Origin: a virus
Lineage: Duplodnaviria > Heunggongvirae > Uroviricota > Caudoviricetes
Virus record (IMG/VR): IMGVR_UViG_2541047814_000001
Reading direction: 5' to 3' (one strand)
Length of the DNA stretch: 50,937 nt
Shown here: positions 1-46,406 of the stretch, one piece after another
How the letters are laid out: the number at the start of each line of letters is the position of its first letter
Position numbering within the stretch: the stretch's first letter is position 1
The notes under the pieces: model-generated
What the model saw: only the letters and a program-made list of their open reading frames with translations
Database searches by the model: none
Told to the model about the DNA's origin: nothing
Translations under genes and position numbers: made by a program

Positions 1-558
1 ATGAATACAGCTATAACTTTTTCTAACGAGTCACCAAAAGTCTTTTTCAAAGATGGTCGCCTGGTTACCACCTCTCAAGCTGTTGCCGACTACTTCGATA
101 AACAACATAAACACGTTTTAGCTAAGATTGACACACTCGACTGCTCTCCCGAATTTACATCAGCCAACTTTTCGGCCGATGTTCAGACTGTCGAAATTGG
201 CAACGGCGCAGAACGTGAATCACGATGCTACCTGATCACAAAAGACGGCTTCATGTTCCTCGTAATGGGATTTACTGGCAAAAAAGCAGCCAGACTAAAA
301 GAAGCTTACATTGAAAAATTTAACGCAATGGAAGAAGAACTCCACAAACGTCCTCCTGCAGCACAAAACTCCCCCGCCCCAAATAATGGATGCGCATTAC
401 TGATCCACTTCGATAAACACGGTCAGGTCGAGTTCACAGAAAAAGTCCCCGCCGATGCGATGGTATGCACGCTGGAACGGTTTAAATTTTATCTGGAGCA
501 ACATGGGTGGATCGTTGCCCGTAAAGAACAATTGGTGGAAAGGTTGATGCGGTTTTAA
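1..558 (+). CDS. Rha-family phage regulatory protein (185 aa)
   Basis: N-terminal motif KDGRLVTTSQAVADYFDKQHKHVLAKID resembles the Rha regulatory domain; ATG at position 1; hairpin terminator follows. Family call from memory, not searched. Confidence 0.55.
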   Translation: MNTAITFSNESPKVFFKDGRLVTTSQAVADYFDKQHKHVLAKIDTLDCSPEFTSANFSADVQTVEIGNGAERESRCYLITKDGFMFLVMGFTGKKAARLKEAYIEKFNAMEEELHKRPPAAQNSPAPNNGCALLIHFDKHGQVEFTEKVPADAMVCTLERFKFYLEQHGWIVARKEQLVERLMRF

Positions 559-565
559 TGAATGC

Positions 566-600
566 AAAACCCCGGATGATCACCGGGGTTAATTTTATCG
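566..600. terminator. GC-rich hairpin (AAAACCCCGG-atgatca-CCGGGGTT) followed by T-rich tract; likely bidirectional terminator after rha
   Basis: Inverted repeat read directly in sequence 3' of the Rha ORF stop. Confidence 0.5.
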
Positions 601-918
601 AGCGTGATTGCCGCTAATCGCCATCGCTCTGATTGAGCGTAAATCATTCAGGTTATTCAGTTCTTCCTTCTGCTCTCGCTGACGTCAATAAATCCCATCA
701 TTGCGATCAACCTCATCCTTAACCATTGATGCGAGCAGTTCTTCCAGTTTCTGCGCTGACAGCTTTACCTGGTGATCTTCAGCATCTTCCCGGGCTATTG
801 TGGTTCGCGCAGTGGCTGATTTTGCTGACATCACCACAGGGGGCAGACGGACCATTGAACCATGGCCTCCGGAACAAATAAGGGCAAAAATAACAACCAC
901 TATCGAAAGCTCACAAAC

Positions 919-1127
919 TAACCGCAGCACGTTCCTGCATACGACGTGTCTGCGGCATAATCCCAATGATTACTCCCTGACAGGATTTGCAGGCCACTCA
1001 ATATCAGGTGCAGTTGATGTATCAACACGATTCAACAATACCCGATATTTATTCCATGCCTCCAGCAACGATCTTTCTTCCTCCGTTGCGATTTCCAGAT
1101 CTACAGCATCCTGCAGTGGCGCAATAT
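919..1127. repeat. Direct repeat copy 1 of the tfa 3' end plus downstream hairpin (partner at 1969-2177)
   Basis: About 200 bp near-identical to 1969-2177 in the same orientation (aaccgcagcacgtt...ggcataatcccaatgattactccctgacagg...). Confidence 0.8.
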
Positions 1128-1239
1128 ACTCACTGAATTCCTGGATGTAGAACTGTGTGGTGACGGTCTTCCAGCCATTCGGCTCCTGCTGTATCGAAGC
1201 ATACCAGGCTATTTCAATATCGCTATGCTGCGGCAGCAT
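970..1239 (-). pseudogene. Tail fibre assembly protein C-terminal fragment (89 aa; duplicated tfa 3' end with unrelated N-terminus)
   Basis: C-terminal ~50 aa ([51 protein letters not shown]) nearly identical to the C-terminus of the full tfa at 2019-2603. Confidence 0.55.
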
Positions 1240-1295
1240 TTAACCCCTTGTAATTCATCGCCATAATTGATTTAATTCACAAATAAAACTATAAC

Positions 1296-1964
1296 ATGGT
1301 GAAATCAATGAAAAAAAACACAGATGATGGGGCTAAAATTTACACACCACTTACCCTAAAGCTTTATGACTGGTGGGTTTTGGGAGTATCAAATCGGCTT
1401 GCATGGGGATGTCCTACAAAGGAACACCTTCTTCCACACTTTCTGGAACATGTAGGTAACAACCATCTGGATATTGGTGTTGGAACTGGGTTTTACCTTA
1501 CTCACGTACCTGAGAGTAGTCTGATATCTTTAATGGATTTGAACGAAGCTAGCCTGAACGCGGCATCTACAAGGGCTGGGGAATCAAAAATTAAACATAA
1601 AATTAGCCATGATGTTTTTGAACCTTATCCCGCGGCGTTACATGGTCAATTTGATTCCATTTCCATGTTTTACCTTCTTCACTGCCTGCCTGGAAATATA
1701 TCTACAAAAAGCTGTGTAATACGCAATGCGGCGCAGGCCTTAACTGACGATGGAACTCTATACGGAGCCACAATTCTTGGCGATGGAGTTGTGCACAATA
1801 GCTTCGGTCAAAAACTGATGCGCATTTACAATCAGAAAGGCATCTTTTCAAACACAAAAGATTCCGAAGAAGGCTTAACACATATACTCTCAGAGCATTT
1901 CGAGAATGTTAAAACCAAGGTTCAAGGTACTGTAGTAATGTTTTCCGCTTCAGGGAAAAAATAG
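1296..1964 (+). CDS. Class I SAM-dependent methyltransferase-like cargo protein (222 aa)
   Basis: Motif I-like LDIGVGTGFYL (hh-D-h-GxGxG); gene is visibly more AT-rich than flanking tail genes; sits between the two tfa 3'-end repeats on the opposite strand. Confidence 0.6.
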   Translation: MVKSMKKNTDDGAKIYTPLTLKLYDWWVLGVSNRLAWGCPTKEHLLPHFLEHVGNNHLDIGVGTGFYLTHVPESSLISLMDLNEASLNAASTRAGESKIKHKISHDVFEPYPAALHGQFDSISMFYLLHCLPGNISTKSCVIRNAAQALTDDGTLYGATILGDGVVHNSFGQKLMRIYNQKGIFSNTKDSEEGLTHILSEHFENVKTKVQGTVVMFSASGKK

Positions 1965-1968
1965 CATC

Positions 1969-2177
1969 CAACCGCAGCACGTTCTTGCTTAAGACGTGCT
2001 GCGGCATAATCCCAATGATTACTCCCTGACAGGGTTCGTAGGCCACTCAATATCAGGTGCAGTTGATGTATCAACACGGTTCAGCAACACCCGATACTTT
2101 TTCCAGGCTTCCAGCAATGAGGTTTCTTCCTCCGTTGCAATTTCCAGATCTGCAGCATCCTGAAGCGGCGCAATATG
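1969..2177. repeat. Direct repeat copy 2 (tfa 3' end and hairpin gcagcacgt-N11-acgtgctgc at 1974-2002)
   Basis: Matches 919-1127; the hairpin lies between the convergent methyltransferase and tfa genes. Confidence 0.8.
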
Positions 2178-2603
2178 CTCACTGGCTACCTGCATCAGGT
2201 TGTTTTTTGTTTCTTCCGCCTCCCGGATCCGGAACAGTTTTTCTGCTTCCGTATCCTTCACCCAGGCTGTGCCGTTCCACTTCTGAAACTCCCCTTCCGG
2301 CGATAACCAGGTAACATTTTCCGGTAACGGACCGAGTTCAGAAATAAATAACTCGTCCCCTGACGCTACGTCATAAACCGTTTTACCCCGATGGTCTTCA
2401 ACGAGATGCCACGATGCCTCATCACTGTTGAAAACAGCCACAAAGCCAGCAGGAATATCTGGTGGTGCAATATCGGTACTGTTTGCTGGCAGACCTGTAT
2501 GAGGCGGAATATATGCGTCACCTTCACCAATAAATTCATTAGTTCCGGCCAGCAGATTATAAATTTTTATGGTCCGTGCTTGTTCACTCATTCTGAATGC
2601 CAT
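2019..2603 (-). CDS. tfa: Tail fibre assembly protein Tfa (194 aa)
   Basis: Immediately downstream of stf with ATGA overlap; conserved Tfa C-terminal region; lambda gene order. Confidence 0.85.
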
Positions 2604-5600
2604 TATGCAAGCCTCACAATATAGTTAAATGCGATGTTTTTGACGGTGTTTTCCGCGTTACCCGCAGCGTTAACGGTGATGGTGTGTCCATGTGAACCAA
2701 TCGCAACGGAGTGCGTATGCGCACCAATACCTACAGTATGTGCATGTGCGCCAGAACTTGCTGCAGTACCAGACAGCGAGTGGGTATGAGCACCTGCTGA
2801 CTGTGTCTGAATACGTTGATAATACGATCTATAGGAAGAAGTCTCCGGGCTTACTTGATACTGTGAATTCTGGACATAAGTGAACCCACCGCCATCATAA
2901 AATGCTAACGCAGAACCGCCGCCTCCTGGCCAACGAATACCATTACCATGAGTATGAACACCGGCAGACCCCGTAGAGCCACTCAGACTGTGCGTATGCG
3001 CCCCGGTGTTATTCGTGGATTTAGTGCCGTAATCAAACGACGATGTGGTTTTCGTCCCCAAATCCGTACTGGATGCGCTGGCGCTGTGGGTGTGCGATTT
3101 AATGCCGTCCTGTTCCTGAGACAATACGGCCCGGCCACTGGCGGGTTTGCCCTTGATTGTCCAGCCGCGCATATCTGGAATAACACCTGAAGGATAGGCA
3201 ATAGCCAGTTTCGGATATGCTGCCTTATCAAACGTCTGCCCCTGCATGATTGCATAACCTGCAGGTGGTGTATCTGATGGCCACGGCAGCGGAACACCTG
3301 GCGGAAACGCTTCAATATTTGCCGAGCCGTCAAATTTTACGCCGTTAATTGTCCTTGCAGTTTGCAATTTGGTTGCTGTGCTTGCATTACCCGATAAAGA
3401 TCCAGTGATACCACCACTCGCGTTTAATTTAGTTGCAATTGTAACATTGCCAGTATGGTTACTAATTATAAACGGCCTTAAGCTATTGTGCGTACCAAGA
3501 CTGTTACCCGAATCTGTCAACATAAAATATGTGTTTGATCCATCATTTCGGATAAAGAATCCATAGTTGCCATAGGCAATACGCAGACCATTTGCTGACC
3601 TTGAAATAACCTCACCAGCAGCAGTTAAACCACCTGAAAGAGTCCCTCCAGTTAATGCCAATGCCCCAATATTTGAAGGGGTCAATGTGATATTTGCACT
3701 ACCATCAAATGACACACCGTTAATCGTTCTGGCTGCCTGAAGTTTCGTGGCGGTCGCAGCATTACCTGTAGTGTTTTGATTACCGGTAGCGTTGACTCCA
3801 GGCAAGTTGATATCTGCCGATCCATCAAATGCCACGCCCCCAATCTTACGTGCTGTCTTGATCTTGGTCGCAGTATCTGCGTTTCCGGTCAAATTACCAG
3901 TAACACTACCACCAACTTTTAGTCCATTACCGATGGACACCAACCCTGATCTTAAGTTTATAGAGAATGGTCTTAATGAACCGATGTCTCCATTTTCCCC
4001 CTCCCCTTCATTAGTCGGAATAAGATGAAGATGATCTTCGGAACGCCTAAAAATAAGGCCAAAGGCTTGGTTGAATATTCGAAGAGCATTTATCGTGCTG
4101 ATTTTTAACTGCCCTCCCATTGTGTCGCCAGTTTTTTGAACTGAACTATCTTTAACAGTTTTAACTGCCTTTGGCGTTGCCGCCAGCTTTTCACTGGTGC
4201 TGTTTGTTGCACTGCTGAGCTGTACTATCCCCTTTTTCGTCGTGCTCGCATCCTCCAGCGCCACGGCGGATGCAATATCCTCTGCCCGTTTTGCTGCTGT
4301 CTCGGCGCGCGTTGCCGCGGATTCAGCAGCAACTTTGCTCTGAGATGCAGCCGTCGCACTGCCTGCCGCCTCTGATGCTTTCGTTGTTGCTGTCGTGGCA
4401 CTACCTTTCGCTGCTGACGCTTGTCTGGTCGCCTCATCTTTTGAAGCAGACGCAGATGATGCCGATGACGCCGCTGAACTGGCTGACGATGCGGCTGCCG
4501 CCTTAGAGGAAGCAGCATTGTCTGCTGAAGTCTTTGCATTTGTTTCAGAGGTTTTTGCTGCAGAAGCAGACCTCGCTGCTGCAGTGGCTTGCTCAGTGGC
4601 TTTGCCAGCCTTCGTTGTGGCTGTTGAAGCGGATGATGCGGCGCTTTCTGCCGATTTTCCGGCGGCGGTGGCACTGGCTGAGGCCTGCCCGGCACTTGTT
4701 GACGCGGCACTGGCAGATAATGCAGCCGCTGTTTTTGAACCTGCCGCAGCTGAGGCGCTCTGTCCCGCTGCTGTTTCAGAAGACTTAGCGTTCGTCTCGG
4801 ACGTTTTTGCCGCCTTCGCGGAATTTCCTGCCGCCGTTGCCGAGGAAGCTGCACTACTGGCACTTGATGATGCATTCGTTTCTGAAGATTTCGCTGCCTC
4901 TTTTGAGGTCGCCGCACCCCGTGCCGAGGTGGCAGCTTCTGACGCCTTCGTGGTCGCTGTGGATGCAGAAGTGGCTGCCGATTTTTGTGATGCTGCGGCA
5001 TTCGTTTCTGACGTTTTCGCGGCACTGGCGCTGGTAGCTGCCGCGCTTTTTGATGACTCTGCAGCAGCAGCAGCACTTTTTGCTGCTTCACGGGTCTTTG
5101 TCGATGCCGTTCCTGCGCTGGAAGACGCTGACTGAGCCGACGACGCGGCCTGTCCGGCTGACGTGCTGGCGGCACGTGCTGAGGCTGCAGCATCGGTTGC
5201 ATGAGTTGCCGCCTCGCTGGCTGATGCACTGGCATCGCTGGCTGATTTTTTCGCGGCTGCCGTATTCTGTGCAACCGCGGAGGCGTTACGTGACACCTCT
5301 TCCACCATCTGCTCAAAGCGGCGCAGTGCCTCCGGTCGGACATCATCCTCCGTCATGGCACCGAGAAAATCATTCAGCGTACCTGATCTGGAACCTTCAT
5401 AGACGGTAATGGTCCCGGCATGTGAAGGCGGAAAACCTTCAACCAGCAGGGTGACGCTGTACTGACCATGCTCAACATCCATGCTGTAACGTCCGGCTTC
5501 ATCCGGATTTTCAGAGGCCACCGTGTTCACCACCACCGTGCTGCTGGTTCGTCTGGCCTTCAGCACAATGGTGCAGTTCTGTACTGGTTTTCCTGTGCCA

Positions 5601-5632
5601 TCTTTAAGCACGCCAGAAATTTTTACTGTCAT
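2603..5632 (-). CDS. stf: Side tail fibre protein Stf (1009 aa)
   Basis: N-terminus [22 protein letters not shown]... matches lambda Stf; long Ala/Ser/Thr-rich repeat region; C-terminal His-rich HxH motifs (GAHTHS..., [30 protein letters not shown]). Confidence 0.9.
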
Positions 5633-5643
5633 ACTTTTCCACC

Positions 5644-5678
5644 AATAAAAAAAGCCCGCAGCAGTGACGCCACGGGCT
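5644..5678 (-). terminator. Rho-independent terminator after lom (minus strand)
   Basis: Minus-strand reading gives hairpin AGCCCG...CGGGCT followed by a T tract. Confidence 0.55.
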
Positions 5679-5783
5679 TCAGGACAGTGTAACTTTACGT
5701 TTCCTCAAACGCAGTTCACCCCATAAGGTGGATGAACCTGCGTATCATAACAATATTTACAGAAGATAAATCGGCGTCTGTTG

Positions 5784-6383
5784 TCAGAAACGGTATCCGA
5801 TACCAACAATAAATGCATCCGTTCGCCAGTCGCCACTACCGGAACCTTCATAAGCAAGGTCAATGGTCACGGATTCGGTCGGATTAAACTGCACGCCAGC
5901 CCCCCACGCCAGAGACGTGTTGCTGTGGCGACCGTCATCACTTCCGGTCAGCACATCGTGCGTTTTCCCCTTGTTGTCAGTTACGCGGAGATAATCCCCG
6001 GAGAAAGTCGACACACGGCTGTAAGCCACACCCACCATCGCATACGCGCTGAACCATTCATTCACGCGTACAGACGGCCCCGCCATCACGCTGAACCAGC
6101 GGTTACGCACGGAATCTTCATGCCAGCGGGTATCGCTGTAGCGCGTTTTTTGCTCATCCTCAGCATTGGCATAACTGAAGGACGTAATCAGCCCCAGCGC
6201 GTCCGTAAACTCATAACGGTATTTCACGTTAATCCCGTTCAGATCATCACTACCGGGAACGTTCGTCGAGGCATGGAGATACCCCGCGCTCAGCGTGGAC
6301 TGATGTTCTGCTGCACTCGCTGGCGTAGCAGCGGCGACCTGCCAGACTACTGCGGACAAAATAACAGCACATAATTTACGCAT
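5784..6383 (-). CDS. lom: Lom outer-membrane protein (Ail/Lom/PagC family, 199 aa)
   Basis: Signal peptide then beta-barrel-like sequence ending ...GIGYRF; position between J and stf as in lambda. Confidence 0.9.
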   Translation of the reverse strand: MRKLCAVILSAVVWQVAAATPASAAEHQSTLSAGYLHASTNVPGSDDLNGINVKYRYEFTDALGLITSFSYANAEDEQKTRYSDTRWHEDSVRNRWFSVMAGPSVRVNEWFSAYAMVGVAYSRVSTFSGDYLRVTDNKGKTHDVLTGSDDGRHSNTSLAWGAGVQFNPTESVTIDLAYEGSGSGDWRTDAFIVGIGYRF

Positions 6384-6450
6384 AATTACCTCTCGCTTTT
6401 CTGCAATAAAAAAGGCGCCATTTCTGGCGCCCGTATCTGGGTTATAAAAT

Positions 6451-26048: not shown

Positions 26049-26473
26049 CGGGAATCCTGGAGACTAAACTTCCTGAGAAAGAGGTAAACAGGATGACTAA
26101 AAATACTCGTTTTTCCCCCGAAGTCCGTCAACGGGCAGTCCGTATGGTTCTGGAAAGTCAGAGCGAATATGACTCACAATGGGCGACAATTTGTTCCATT
26201 GCTCCAAAGATTGGCTGTACGCCGGAGACTCTGCGTGTCTGGGTTCGCCAGCATGAGCGGGATACCGGGGGCGGTGATGGAGGGCTCACCACCGCTGAAC
26301 GTCAGCGTCTGAAAGAGCTGGAACGTGAAAATCGTGAACTGCGCCGCAGTAACGATATCCTTCGCCAGGCTTCCGCTTATTTTGCGAAGGCGGAGTTCGA
26401 CCGCCTCTGGAAAAAATGATGCCACTGCTGGATAAGCTGCGTGAGCAGTACGGGGTCGGACCGCTATGCAGCG
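26049..26473 (+). mobile_element. Truncated IS3-family element (IS629-like): left IR, orfA and the first ~20 codons of orfB
   Basis: Left end TGAACCGCCCCGGGAATCCTGGAGACTAAACTTCC; orfA complete; orfB frame ([19 protein letters not shown]) breaks after about 20 codons. Confidence 0.7.
26093..26419 (+). CDS. IS3-family transposase OrfA (108 aa, IS629-like)
   Basis: [23 protein letters not shown]... with HTH and leucine zipper typical of IS3 OrfA. Confidence 0.8.
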
Positions 26474-27528: not shown

Positions 27529-29028
27529 GTGACGCTCAATACTTCTCAGGTCAGTTACTATATGACTCAGCGTAAGAAAGGTATAACTCAGCATATCTCG
27601 GCCATGAAGGCTGGTATCTCAGTCCGTTCTGGTCGTCGGATCGAAAAAGGAGAGTGGGCAAAAAACAGTGTTCGGCACTGGCGCACACGCAAAGATCCTC
27701 TGGAAGCTGTGTGGGACAGCATGCTTGTTCCTCTGTTGAAAGAGAGGCCGGCTCTGACACCAACAACTCTGCTGGAGATGCTACAGGATAAATATCCCGG
27801 CCAGTACCCCAACAGCCTTCGAAGAACAATGCAACGGCGGGTCCGCGAATGGAAGCTACAGTATGGTGCAGAGCAGGAGGTCATGTTCCGCCAGCGACAT
27901 CAGCCCGGTCTGCGAGGTCTGTCGGACTTTACTGAACTGAAAGGTGTAGTTGTCACCATCGCCGGTAAGTTGTTGGCGCATAAGTTGTATCACTTCCGTC
28001 TGGAATGGAGCCACTGGAGCTGGATGCGGGTTGTGCTGGGTGGTGAGAGCTTCTCTGCTCTGGCTGAAGGTCTGCAGGAAGCCCTCGGACAACTGGGCGG
28101 AGTGCCGGTAGAACATAAAACGGACAGCCTGAGGGCAGCATGGAAACAACAGGGCGAAGATGGACGCCGCGAGCTGACTGAGCGTTATGCTGCTCTCTGT
28201 CAGCACTACGGAATGCAGGGCGTACACAATAATGCCGGTCGGGGCCACGAAAATGGCTCGGTTGAAAGTGCCCACGGACATCTGAAAAGGCGTATCTGTC
28301 AGGCGCTGATACTGCGGGGCAGTAACGACTTCAGCACCATAGAAGAATATCAGGCCTTCATCACTCAGCAGGTTATGCGGCACAACCGTAACAATCAGGA
28401 TCTGGTCAAGGAAGAACGTCTTCATCTGAAACCGCTGCCGCTTCGTCGCAGTGCTGACTATGATGAGCTGACTGTGAGGGTTAGCCGCAGCAGTACCATC
28501 AATGTGAAGCACGTCGTCTACAGCGTACCTTCCCGGCTTGTAGGTCAACTGTTACGGGTCCGGTTATGGGACGATCGTCTGAGCTGTTACGTTGGCAGCA
28601 GCGAGGTCATGAGCTGCCCACGTGTCAGACCAGAAAAAGGGAAGACGCGGGCCCGTCGTATCGACTTCCGACATGTGATCGACAGTCTGGCAAAAAAGCC
28701 CGGTGCGTTCTGCCATGCAACGCTGAGAAATGACATCCTGCCAGACGATGAATGGCGGAGGCTGTGGCGTCGCTTATGTAATCATCTGGAACCCGACATG
28801 GCAGGCAGGCTGATGGTACATGCTCTGAAACTGGCTGCAGGATACGACGATATCTCAGTCGTGGCAAAAGGTATGGAGCAGATGCTGAATACCCCGGGAA
28901 ACGTGGATCTGCACCGGCTGATGCGCTTCCTGGGTATAAAGGAAAAGGCGTTGCCGGTAGTCAATGTGAAACAGCATAACCTGAGCAGTTATGAGCAACT
29001 ACTGCGTGGCAAGGGAGGTTCGCAGTGA
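27529..29028 (+). CDS. istA: IS21-family transposase IstA (499 aa)
   Basis: N-terminal HTH, DDE-type core, typical IstA length; followed by istB. Confidence 0.85.
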   Translation: MTLNTSQVSYYMTQRKKGITQHISAMKAGISVRSGRRIEKGEWAKNSVRHWRTRKDPLEAVWDSMLVPLLKERPALTPTTLLEMLQDKYPGQYPNSLRRTMQRRVREWKLQYGAEQEVMFRQRHQPGLRGLSDFTELKGVVVTIAGKLLAHKLYHFRLEWSHWSWMRVVLGGESFSALAEGLQEALGQLGGVPVEHKTDSLRAAWKQQGEDGRRELTERYAALCQHYGMQGVHNNAGRGHENGSVESAHGHLKRRICQALILRGSNDFSTIEEYQAFITQQVMRHNRNNQDLVKEERLHLKPLPLRRSADYDELTVRVSRSSTINVKHVVYSVPSRLVGQLLRVRLWDDRLSCYVGSSEVMSCPRVRPEKGKTRARRIDFRHVIDSLAKKPGAFCHATLRNDILPDDEWRRLWRRLCNHLEPDMAGRLMVHALKLAAGYDDISVVAKGMEQMLNTPGNVDLHRLMRFLGIKEKALPVVNVKQHNLSSYEQLLRGKGGSQ

Positions 29029-29780
29029 GCAATATCCATCACCTTGAACGCAGCCTGCGTAAACTACGCCTGACACGAGTTGGAGCTGAATGGCACGCTC
29101 TGGAAAAACGAGCACTGGCAGAAGGCTGGACACCATCGCGCTATCTTCTGACGCTATGCAATGAAGAACTCCTGTGGCGCGAGAGTGAAAAACTGCGTCG
29201 TTATAAAAAGGAGGCCCGGTTGCCAGTTGCCAAAACGCTAAGCGAATACGACTTCAGTCAGGTGCCGGAACTGAATGGAGCTCAGTTCCGGCAACTCTGT
29301 GAAACGACAGACTGGGTTGATGCAGGAGAAAACGTTCTGCTGTTCGGAGCCAGCGGGTTGGGGAAAAGCCATCTGGCGGCAGCGATCGTGGATGGCGTAG
29401 TAGGCCAGGGCTACCGGGCCCGGTTCTACAGCGCAGGAGAGTTGTTGCAGGAACTACGTAAAGCCAGAGCGCAGTTGAAACTGAATGAGCTGCTACTGAA
29501 ACTGGATCGCTACCGGGTGATAGTGGTGGATGATCTTGGCTATGTCAAACGCGACAGCGCCGAAACGGGAGTACTGTTCGAGTTAATAGCGCATCGCTAT
29601 GAACGTGGGAGCCTGGTGATAACCAGTAACCATCCGTTCAGCATGTGGGGCAGCATCTTCGTGGATGAGACTATGGCGGTGGCGGCGGCAGACCGGCTGA
29701 TCCATCACGGATATATGTTCGAACTGAAAGGTGAAAGCTACAGGAAAAAGACAGCGAAGGCAGTAACAAGCGCGACTTGA
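29025..29780 (+). CDS. istB: IS21-family ATP-binding helper IstB (251 aa)
   Basis: Walker A GASGLGKSHLA and Walker B VIVVDDLGY. Confidence 0.85.
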   Translation: MSNIHHLERSLRKLRLTRVGAEWHALEKRALAEGWTPSRYLLTLCNEELLWRESEKLRRYKKEARLPVAKTLSEYDFSQVPELNGAQFRQLCETTDWVDAGENVLLFGASGLGKSHLAAAIVDGVVGQGYRARFYSAGELLQELRKARAQLKLNELLLKLDRYRVIVVDDLGYVKRDSAETGVLFELIAHRYERGSLVITSNHPFSMWGSIFVDETMAVAAADRLIHHGYMFELKGESYRKKTAKAVTSAT

Positions 29781-34238: not shown

Positions 34239-34241
34239 GTC

Positions 34242-34430
34242 CATAAGAAAGCCCCTCCGGAGAGGGGCTAAAGCCGCGTATCTGTATCATCATGCACATG
34301 GTGCCGGGTGCCTCCCGGTGAGTTCAGCCCGGTGCCACTAAACCCGCGTCATTCTCGTTTTGATAATCAGAGATTATACCGTCACCAGTCGCCCCTCCGC
34401 TCAGGGGGATTCACCATGCGAAATTTTTTT
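34242..34430. repeat. Direct repeat unit 1 (about 180 bp, imperfect) with GCCCCTCCGGAGAGGGGC hairpin
   Basis: Shares blocks with 34735-34915 (aaagcccctccggagaggggct, ggtgccgggtgcctcccggtga, cccctccgc.cagggggattcaccatgc, tgaattgtgag). Confidence 0.6.
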
Positions 34431-34734
34431 AACAAATGCCCAGTCTGACAGGCAACTGTCAACTTACTGAATTGTGAGCAACATAGCATTTAACGGGGAA
34501 CCTGTTTTCTGCAGTAAAAAGGCCCACCGGAGCGGATGGGCCTGGAAGGATAGCGGTCATGTGATGCCGGTTTCCCGGTAACTCAGCACCGGTATCTGAG
34601 TCAACGTTTTCTCTACTGGGTCATTTCCGATACGCCCTGCCTGCTGACAGGCTTTCATCACATCTGAAAATATAGCACCCTGACTGATACTGTAGTACCT
34701 AAGGTTCCAGAAACTGTGATGTATCCGGCACAGA

Positions 34735-34915
34735 AAAGCCCCTCCGGAGAGGGGCTGGAGAGTGGCGCTATGTGCCATTGCATGGTGCCGGGTGCCTCCC
34801 GGTGAATTCAGTACCAGCACCTGAATCCGCGATTATCCCATATACCTACTCGCTGATTGCCCCTCCGCACAGGGGGATTCACCATGCCAGTTTCTTTTAA
34901 CAAACTCCCCGCAAA
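34735..34915. repeat. Direct repeat unit 2 (partner of 34242-34430)
   Basis: Same conserved blocks in the same order and orientation. Confidence 0.6.
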
Positions 34916-34989
34916 CCAGACAACAGTCAACCGCCTGAATTGTGAGACATTTAAAAAAAGCCCGCAAAAGCGAGCCAGGGAAAATAAGT

Positions 34990-35067
34990 GTGGCGCGTTG
35001 TACTGGATTCGAACCAGTGACCGATTGCTTAGAAGGCAATTGCTCTGTCCGGCTGAGCTAACAACGC
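34990..35067 (-). tRNA. tRNA-Arg (anticodon UCU)
   Basis: Minus strand folds as cloverleaf; anticodon loop CTTCTAA; T-loop TTCGAAT; 3' CCA encoded. Confidence 0.8.
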
Positions 35068-35080
35068 AGGATACAGATAA

Positions 35081-35157
35081 TGGACCGCCTTCGGGGACCC
35101 GAACTCCGCGCAACCAGCTTCGAAAGCTGGCGCTCTTTCCTGATGAGCTAATGGCGG
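35081..35157 (-). tRNA. tRNA-like gene, probably Arg (anticodon read as UCG); atypical T-arm
   Basis: D-arm GCTC...GAGC, anticodon stem CCAGC/GCTGG with loop TTTCGAA, CCA end; T-stem has one mismatch and T-loop is TTCGGGT. Confidence 0.45.
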
Positions 35158-35164
35158 TATGTGA

Positions 35165-35240
35165 TGGTGGCCCTTGCTGGATTTGAACCAGCGACCTGGC
35201 GATTATGAGTCGCTCGCTCTCACCACTGAGCTAAAGGGCC
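35165..35240 (-). tRNA. tRNA-Ile2-like (anticodon CAU; ileX/ileZ type)
   Basis: GGCCCTTTAGCTCAGTGGTGAGAGCGAGCGACTCATAATCGC...GGGCCACCA; near-canonical cloverleaf, 76 nt. Confidence 0.85.
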
Positions 35241-39450: not shown

Positions 39451-39606
39451 TTACTCCTCAGGTTCGTAAGCTGTGAAGACAGCGACCTCCGTCTGGCCGG
39501 TTCGGAGTCGTACCTCGCAGAGGTCTTTCCTCGTTACCAGTGCCGTCACTATGACGGTTAAACAGATGACGATCAGGGCGATTAACATCGCCTTTTGCTG
39601 CTTCAT
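39451..39606 (-). CDS. hok: Hok/Gef-family type I toxin (51 aa)
   Basis: MKQQKAMLIALIVICLTVIVTALVTRKDLCEVRLRTGQTEVAVFTAYEPEE is a near-canonical Hok sequence; the in-frame upstream extension is probably leader, not coding. Confidence 0.85.
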   Translation of the reverse strand: MKQQKAMLIALIVICLTVIVTALVTRKDLCEVRLRTGQTEVAVFTAYEPEE

Positions 39607-39843
39607 AGCCTGCTTCCCCTTGCCTTTCGGCACGTAAGAGGCTAACCTACATTTGTGAGACATAGATTGGGCCTCAGATTAATGTTAAGCGTCTTGCAGG
39701 ACGCGAAATGTTAACTGGGGCTTTTCTCTATCTGCCTTTCAGTGTTCATGCCTGAGACAGATAGCCTCAAGCACCCGCAGCCATTCTACTTAACTCACGT
39801 CACCTCGCCAATATGAAATCAATCAGAAAGGTGATCCATAAAA

Positions 39844-46348: not shown

Positions 46349-46406
46349 TTTCTGGTGACGTTTGGCGGTATCAGTTTTACTCCGTGACTGCTCTGCCGCC
46401 CTTTTT
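46349..46406 (+). ncRNA. dicF: DicF sRNA (53 nt plus T-tract terminator)
   Basis: TTTCTGGTGACGTTTGGCGGTATCAGTTTTACTCCGTGACTGCTCTGCCGCCC followed by TTTTT matches the DicF sequence as I recall it; lies upstream of dicB as in Qin. Confidence 0.65.

Follow-up and report, generated by a model that had tools for sequence, protein, structure and literature searches.

A ybcY-family methyltransferase gene between direct repeats of tail fiber assembly gene ends in an Escherichia coli prophage: a probable moron and recombination cassette

Why should a prophage carry a methyltransferase gene between two copies of the end of a tail fiber assembly gene, how did the gene come to lie there and what does its product methylate? 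These questions are raised by the virus record IMGVR_UViG_2541047814_000001, a stretch of 50,937 nucleotides which we refer to in its entirety as the window and whose positions serve as coordinates throughout. The first 6.4 kb of the window are the tail end of an Escherichia coli lambda-like prophage, and within them two direct copies of the 3′ end of the tail fiber assembly gene, tfa, bracket a gene for a class I S-adenosylmethionine (SAM)-dependent methyltransferase that is encoded on the opposite strand to tfa. We consider it likely that this gene is a moron, ybcY, that its product is a methyltransferase of small molecules or lipids, and that the repeats on either side of it constitute a recombination cassette. 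The features on which this reading depends are:

920-1135: left copy of the direct repeat, tfa 3′ end plus hairpin, about 89% identical to 1970-2184
922-955, minus strand: hairpin of the left copy, a terminator-like stem-loop with a 1-nucleotide bulge after the tfa remnant (tfa′)
970-1239, minus strand: tfa′, a remnant open reading frame (ORF) of 89 amino acids with only the C-terminal part of Pfam Caudo_TAP; PHROG 2341
1240-1295, plus strand: methyltransferase promoter region with two candidate promoters (consensus scan; PMC3946193)
1296-1964, plus strand: ybcY-family class I SAM-dependent methyltransferase gene, 222 amino acids from the ATG at 1296 or, likelier, 218 amino acids from the ATG at 1308 (RefSeq WP_000240999.1)
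1970-2184: right copy of the repeat, in which the intact tfa ends, with its hairpin (repeat finder, pairwise alignment)
1972-2004: strong hairpin at the point where the methyltransferase and tfa genes converge
2019-2603, minus strand: intact tail fiber assembly gene tfa, 194 amino acids (Pfam Caudo_TAP 1-130, E 2e-44; RefSeq WP_000885577.1)

The first part of the question, what the gene is, has a simple answer: it is the known and routinely annotated ybcY, it is not new, and its layout is already present in E. coli K-12. There the gene is frameshifted and has tail fiber assembly pseudogenes on both sides, close to appY and ompT in the DLP12 prophage; this locus is tfaD-ybcY-tfaX, with ybcY being b0562. 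The window shares with DLP12 the gene (98.9-99.4% nucleotide identity), the gene order, the orientations, the promoter hexamers and the hairpin. The two differ in that the K-12 methyltransferase is frameshifted, both of its tfa genes are fragments and its stf is gone, whereas in the window the methyltransferase and the right-hand tfa and stf are intact in what is apparently a complete prophage at ompW. At an identity of at least 95% the gene is found in 3836 of 5426 complete E. coli genomes (71%), with up to four copies per genome, and the nucleotide identity of the window's gene to E. coli copies is 98.9-100% (99.4% to that of K-12). Queries specific to its junctions matched 3437 genomes for tfa′-methyltransferase and 3074 for methyltransferase-hairpin-tfa, while the region 900-2200 is covered to at least 80% in 2736 genomes, from which it follows that at least about 2700 genomes carry the gene with both tfa flanks and repeats.

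The gene is also present in 16 phage records, 14 of which carry at least 80% of it. Among the isolated phages that have it are 2G7b, ev243 and PhiR26_1, and in PhiR26_1 it is annotated "YbcY" ("putative uncharacterized protein YbcY"). The gene order in PhiR26_1 is lom-stf-tfa, methyltransferase, tfa fragment, alpha/beta hydrolase and ompT; in 2G7b the same methyltransferase and tfa fragments stand behind a different fiber module. A comparison with the tfa-downstream regions of related phages, which the initial annotation of this locus had proposed, thus recovered the same layout in K-12, PhiR26_1 and 2G7b, and it also uncovered prophages at ompW that are devoid of the gene, as described below. 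The novelty which that annotation implied was lost in the process: the gene and its repeats are a standard, annotated component of these phages (DLP12 of K-12, PHROG 2132 together with PHROG 2341, 71% of complete E. coli genomes), an outcome that it had itself named as a refutation. In both 2G7b and PhiR26_1 the cassette is adjoined by ompT and by a gene for a TAP-like alpha/beta hydrolase of 464-494 amino acids (PHROG 20134), which matches the PADLOC model PDLC01094 "C3a206" (E 1e-55). A conserved pairing of methyltransferase and hydrolase was considered and rejected, because this hydrolase is unrelated to the carboxylesterase found beside an Erwinia homolog of YbcY.

What are the repeats? 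They span about 216 nucleotides, are about 89% identical and differ in length by a single 1-nucleotide indel, a similarity that far exceeds chance. The repeat finder reported them as two segments (950-1146 against 1999-2195, 197 nucleotides at 89%, and 920-948 against 1970-1998 at 90%), and pairwise alignment showed that the homology starts abruptly, exactly at 920/1970, fades at about 1135/2184 and does not continue beyond. Each copy holds the last 55 tfa codons (approximately 140-194; 2019-2184 in the right copy) and 49 nucleotides of downstream sequence that include a hairpin, so that the direct repeat of the last ~50 codons plus hairpin which had been placed at 919-1127 and 1969-2177 was located correctly to within a few bases. 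The right hairpin (1972-2004) has folding energies of -23/-28.5 kcal/mol (z -4.7/-6.1 relative to shuffled sequences) and the left one (922-955) of -17.9 kcal/mol on the plus strand and -24.1 kcal/mol on the minus strand (z about -3.5 to -3.8); a consensus scan placed a terminator-like site at 939-923 on the minus strand. The strong right hairpin begins 8 nucleotides past the methyltransferase stop codon, its stem is not followed by a U-tract on the plus strand, and it is conserved 3′ of the methyltransferase gene in every locus we compared, including those in which something else has taken the place of the tfa flank.

Much of the right repeat is also covered by a full-length match (2062-2260, minus strand, 225 bits) to the Rfam model RF02111 "IS009". 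This match sits inside the intact tfa coding sequence, on its coding strand, and recurs both in phage PhiR26_1 and in tfaD of K-12. Most likely it reflects conserved tfa coding sequence and not a separate RNA gene.

The ORF of the left copy, tfa′, matches only profile positions 75-130 of Caudo_TAP, i.e. its C-terminal third, and corresponds in full length to PHROG 2341, which is labeled "unknown function". Its residues ~27-89 are the Tfa C-terminal domain; in tblastn searches it matched full-length Tfa proteins from residue 27 on only, and residues 1-26 have no Tfa homolog. Across the seven loci compared the ORF ranges from 25 to 101 amino acids, being differently truncated, frameshifted or replaced, and RefSeq treats it as a pseudogene. 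Because of this variable truncation and frameshifting, and because its first 26 residues have no counterpart in full-length Tfa, we conclude that the left copy is the decaying remnant of an earlier tail fiber module and not a working short chaperone, which agrees with its initial description as a truncated tfa copy at 970-1239. The flanking repeats are different alleles of one conserved sequence, the tfa 3′ end, and the allele on the right is that of the working tfa.

Did recombination between these alleles move the gene? We searched genomes with a synthetic "deleted" query in which 600-1100 was joined to 2150-2650, and it aligned without interruption to three genomes in which the same prophage occupies the ompW site but has no methyltransferase gene. 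What these empty sites lack is exactly the 1050-bp unit, and in one of them, NMBU-W13E19, the flanks are 100% (919 nucleotides) and 99.88% (3458 nucleotides) identical to the window. At the roughly 24 positions that distinguish the two repeats the empty sites are chimeric, with a left-type outer end and a right-type inner end; the switch from left to right falls within 950-984 in EFF60 and within 991-1029 in NMBU-W13E19, the latter also having a short left-type patch at 1051-1057. Two crossover intervals in near-identical prophages are the signature of independent events of homologous recombination between the repeats, each of which would have deleted the 1050-bp unit. In the same flank context about 377 genomes are filled and about 4 are empty. 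The right flank itself can vary: in one strain it is an IS3 element, and in O157:H7 yciG/F/E-katN paralogs lie between the methyltransferase and tfa.

From these observations a mechanism can be proposed. A self-contained unit of approximately 1228-2005, comprising a sigma-70 promoter, the 218-amino-acid methyltransferase gene and the tfa terminator hairpin, lies inserted convergently just 3′ of tfa. As tfa 3′ ends are conserved among many phages, the resulting repeat-unit-repeat structure acts as a cassette for homologous recombination: 1. recombination between the repeats leads to loss of the 1050-bp unit, as seen in the natural chimeric empty sites, and 2. an excised or donor copy, for instance from a resident DLP12 remnant, could re-enter any phage via homology to its tfa 3′ end. 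Entry by recombination would account for the occurrence of one 99%-identical gene behind different fiber modules and in the ancient DLP12 remnant of most E. coli. The initial proposal of a moron acquired by recombination was therefore essentially right, in that deletion alleles with chimeric tfa ends exist, although the acquisition itself is something that we infer.

The gene's status as a moron follows from its orientation and promoter. It runs against the late tail operon, convergent to tfa, and two candidate promoters precede it in the consensus scan: TTAACC (1240)-16-CATAAT (1262-1267) and TTGATT (1267-1272)-17-TATAAC (1290-1295). The spacer between ybcY and tfaX in K-12 is listed as an in vitro constitutive sigma-70 promoter with H-NS, TTGATT-17-TATAAC (PMC3946193), and this sequence is unchanged at 1267-1295 of the window. 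The promoter region is invariant across the seven loci, whose invariant core (~1228-2005) holds promoter, gene and hairpin. Thus, judged from its sequence, ybcY is an independent transcription unit against the late operon, i.e. a moron, with its own predicted promoter. As a self-contained unit with these properties it would be an accessory gene expressed in the lysogen and not a gene of virion assembly. Its GC content is lower than that of its surroundings, as had been claimed, but the difference behind the description "visibly AT-rich" is modest (0.41-0.43 compared with 0.46-0.52 in the flanks). Classical lambdoid morons are lom and bor of lambda and the HK97-type morons that Hendrix and colleagues defined. 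Like them, ybcY is a single gene with a promoter of its own, located against or between late genes, with a lower GC content, present in some and absent from others of a group of otherwise near-identical phages, and situated in the tail-end region where lom also lies; it differs in that its product is an enzyme of the cytoplasm and not a protein of the envelope and in that it is bracketed by 216-bp homologous repeats, which offer a recombination route in and out.

Is the gene maintained for what its product does, or is it a selfish or neutral hitch-hiker that persists only through recombination-prone tfa ends and a near-fixed DLP12 remnant? The latter is an unlikely explanation, although it can point to the frameshift in the K-12 copy, to a ybcY mutant that was unremarkable in a published Hha toxicity assay and to the loss of the gene in an ethanol-evolved line, and also to the listing of its promoter region with H-NS, which suggests silencing (PMC3946193). 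Set against these are the signs of constraint. E. coli copies differ too little (by at most 7 per 657 nucleotides), and the ratio of nonsynonymous to synonymous substitution rates (dN/dS) was obtained from distant copies; it is 0.22 relative to a Citrobacter prophage copy and 0.15 relative to an 84%-identical E. coli variant, values that indicate purifying selection and a functional protein. Among 39 homologs, down to 56% identity, 55 columns are invariant. A heavily eroded DLP12 remnant has been stripped of almost everything else, keeping only int′-tfa′-methyltransferase-ompT, and yet its methyltransferase is intact; similarly, filled sites outnumber empty ones (~377 to ~4) even though the repeats permit deletion. 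Finally, the family is sizeable and broadly conserved: it comprises 417 clusters at 50% identity (E<1e-30) and includes stand-alone chromosomal genes across Enterobacterales as well as members in Acidobacteria, Flavobacteria and fungi. N-terminal extensions within the family carry no Pfam domain apart from one fungal RCC1 fusion, and the names of distant cluster members are only the generic "UbiE" or "class I methyltransferase". A 67%-identical homolog in Salmonella enterica lies in an integrase-bounded island adjoining mutS, with a Ricin-B lectin gene after it and, in one of three loci, a DUF4376 protein as well; this island is a further mobile-element context for the methyltransferase family.

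What, then, does YbcY methylate? Both the homologs and the PHROG profile start with the fifth codon of the ORF, the ATG at 1308, and a GGTGA Shine-Dalgarno sequence lies 5 nucleotides upstream of it at 1298-1302; for these two reasons the real product is probably the protein of 218 amino acids. The match to PHROG 2132 ("unknown function"; E 4e-157) aligns residues 5-222 of the longer ORF with profile positions 1-218. That the gene opposite tfa encodes a class I methyltransferase had been read from the motif LDIGVGTG, and the hidden Markov model (HMM) and structure checks suggested at the time have borne this out. The motif occupies residues 58-65 and is motif I, the GxGxG SAM-binding loop after strand 1; D59, G61, G63 and G65 are invariant in the 39 homologs. 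Also invariant is D81 (LMDLN), which closes a predicted strand (76-81) and by analogy would be the acidic residue that terminates strand 2 and contacts the hydroxyls of the ribose. The protein passes the gathering score of Pfam Methyltransf_12 (37.5 vs. 30 bits, E 4e-9) and is also above the thresholds of Methyltransf_23, _25 and _11, and HMM and structure comparison alike recognize the seven-stranded alpha/beta class I fold. An AlphaFold model built on the 39 homologs (predicted local distance difference test, pLDDT, 90.4) consists of one Rossmann methyltransferase domain and an N-terminal helical lid, whose Y-D...S-N...W motif resembles the lid of UbiE/Coq5.

The closest structural relatives in Foldseek are JHAMT and a bacterial phosphatidylethanolamine N-methyltransferase, while sequence and profile searches of PDB gave only weak matches, to JHAMT and UbiG, and a search of the viral folds in BFVD returned only generic methyltransferases. 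With UbiE/Coq5, UbiG, PmtA-type enzymes and insect JHAMT, YbcY shares the Rossmann fold, the N-terminal helical lid and a size of ~210-230 amino acids, but it is only 12-21% identical to them and falls below the NCBIfam cut-offs, scoring 16.9 vs. 175 bits for RquA, 15.7 vs. 390 for PmtA_Leg and 18 vs. 180 for CpaM. Because of this low identity and these scores YbcY falls outside the curated RquA-, PmtA- and CpaM-type families, and their substrates cannot be transferred to it. Its substrate is most likely a small molecule, a lipid or a quinone-like metabolite, as suggested by the UbiE/Coq5/PmtA/JHAMT-like architecture, and not DNA.

By this evidence it is quite improbable that YbcY is an orphan DNA or RNA methyltransferase which modifies phage or host nucleic acid for restriction evasion or epigenetic regulation. 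The absence of a partner restriction or specificity gene within 1-6400, claimed earlier, is real, but to call the gene an "orphan" in the restriction-modification sense is misleading, since the enzymes that it matches best by HMM and fold act on small molecules, lipids and natural products. At E≤0.01 there is no hit to any DNA methyltransferase family of Pfam; strand 4 is followed by LLHCLPG in place of a (D/N/S)PP(Y/F/W) or PCQ motif IV, and the single domain of 218 amino acids leaves no room for a target-recognition domain. Moreover, homologs stand alone, without restriction-modification partners, in many Enterobacterales, soil bacteria and fungi. Among the PADLOC defense models only mad2 was hit (E 0.009, 12.9 bits), without a qualifying stretch.

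Tail fiber gene duplications with switching occur in Mu, P1 and e14. The reading of the duplicated tfa ends as such a switch, or as an alternative-chaperone system with tfa′ as a functional short Tfa, has the C-terminal domain retained in the 89-residue ORF and its own PHROG in its favor, but it is largely refuted and very improbable: the repeats are direct and not inverted, no invertase gene lies in 1-6400 or in the adjoining chromosome, so that both features of a Pin/Gin/Cin switch (inverted crossover repeats and an adjacent serine invertase) are lacking there, as the initial annotation had argued; there is no second fiber gene alongside, the first 26 residues of tfa′ are unlike Tfa, and tfa′ is truncated, frameshifted or 3′-replaced in K-12, 2G7b, O157:H7 and others, next to a methyltransferase that is intact (the K-12 copy apart).

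Several points weigh against our view of ybcY as a moron for a small-molecule or lipid methyltransferase within a recombination cassette. The chimeric empty sites could in principle come from other exchange between phages and not from intramolecular deletion, and the gain of the cassette by recombination, unlike the deletion alleles, rests on inference. The hairpin at 1972-2004 looks primarily like the tfa terminator, and that the methyltransferase transcript ends there is assumed. As to substrate, no entry stands out in the flat list of fold matches, all of them class I methyltransferases with 12-21% identity, so that the substrate class is no more than a lean and protein or RNA may also be substrates. 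Genomic context provides no functional handle: in the neighborhoods of homologs that we inspected (Salmonella, Erwinia, Enterobacter, Yersinia, Aeromonas, Edaphobacter, Citrobacter and a divergent E. coli copy) there is no conserved partner gene, and the neighbors are unrelated to one another (PMT_2/cybB, carboxylesterase, alpha/beta hydrolase, tannase/TetR, IS elements and Ricin lectin). The frameshifted K-12 copy shows that the gene is dispensable in the laboratory. Literature that mentions ybcY does so incidentally and assigns it no function, and nothing useful was found on methyltransferase morons linked to tail fiber assembly genes or on tfaX/tfaD.

If our reading of the locus is extended to a biological role, YbcY could be a lysogenic-conversion enzyme that acts on an envelope lipid or quinone of the host, or on an incoming toxic small molecule, and thereby alters physiology or resistance, with the tfa-end repeats spreading its gene among lambdoid phages regardless of their tail fiber module. 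This is speculative, and we assign it a low probability.

The rest of the window's first 6.4 kb, the tail end of the lambda-like prophage, holds:

1-558: Rha-family regulator gene
595-873, minus strand: DUF4376 pseudogene remnant (RefSeq label) 3′ of tfa′, with an internal stop
2603-5632, minus strand: side tail fiber gene stf, 1009 amino acids
5784-6383, minus strand: lom

RefSeq records with 100% identity to 560-2700 locate the prophage in a truncated ompW beside trp-yciGFE; they give the label "tail fiber assembly protein" to two genes, of which one is a pseudogene, and name the others "class I SAM-dependent methyltransferase" and DUF4376 pseudogene. The internal stop of the last was confirmed, while a Pfam scan did not recover DUF4376 in it; it may be another layer of discarded tail fiber module. 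A RefSeq "hypothetical protein" of 45 amino acids at 1909-2046 (minus strand), which is named "nucleocapsid protein" in K-12 records, overlaps the 3′ end of the methyltransferase gene, the hairpin and the tfa stop codon and looks like a spurious call. Further into the window there is small RNA content typical of lambdoid phages at 34239-34448, 34726-34916, 34991-35240, 39601-39776 and 46350-46401: two STnc100, a tRNA cluster (Arg-tct, Arg-tcg and a Met-type cat), a sok antitoxin RNA and DicF. An ALIL pseudoknot, the frameshift signal of the IS3 family, at 26374-26473 (plus strand) and two plus-strand ORFs (27529-29028 and 29025-29780) that break an otherwise minus-strand structural region suggest one or more insertion sequences in the prophage near its terminase end.

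As a sequence feature the ybcY locus changes nothing, for it is a routinely annotated gene. It is, however, among the most widespread accessory genes of E. coli prophages, and it is conserved, so that to identify its substrate would be to improve the annotation of thousands of genomes. The naturally occurring filled and empty alleles are ready-made isogenic comparisons. In addition, the locus is a clean example of how the ends of tail fiber assembly genes serve as recombination handles for cargo.

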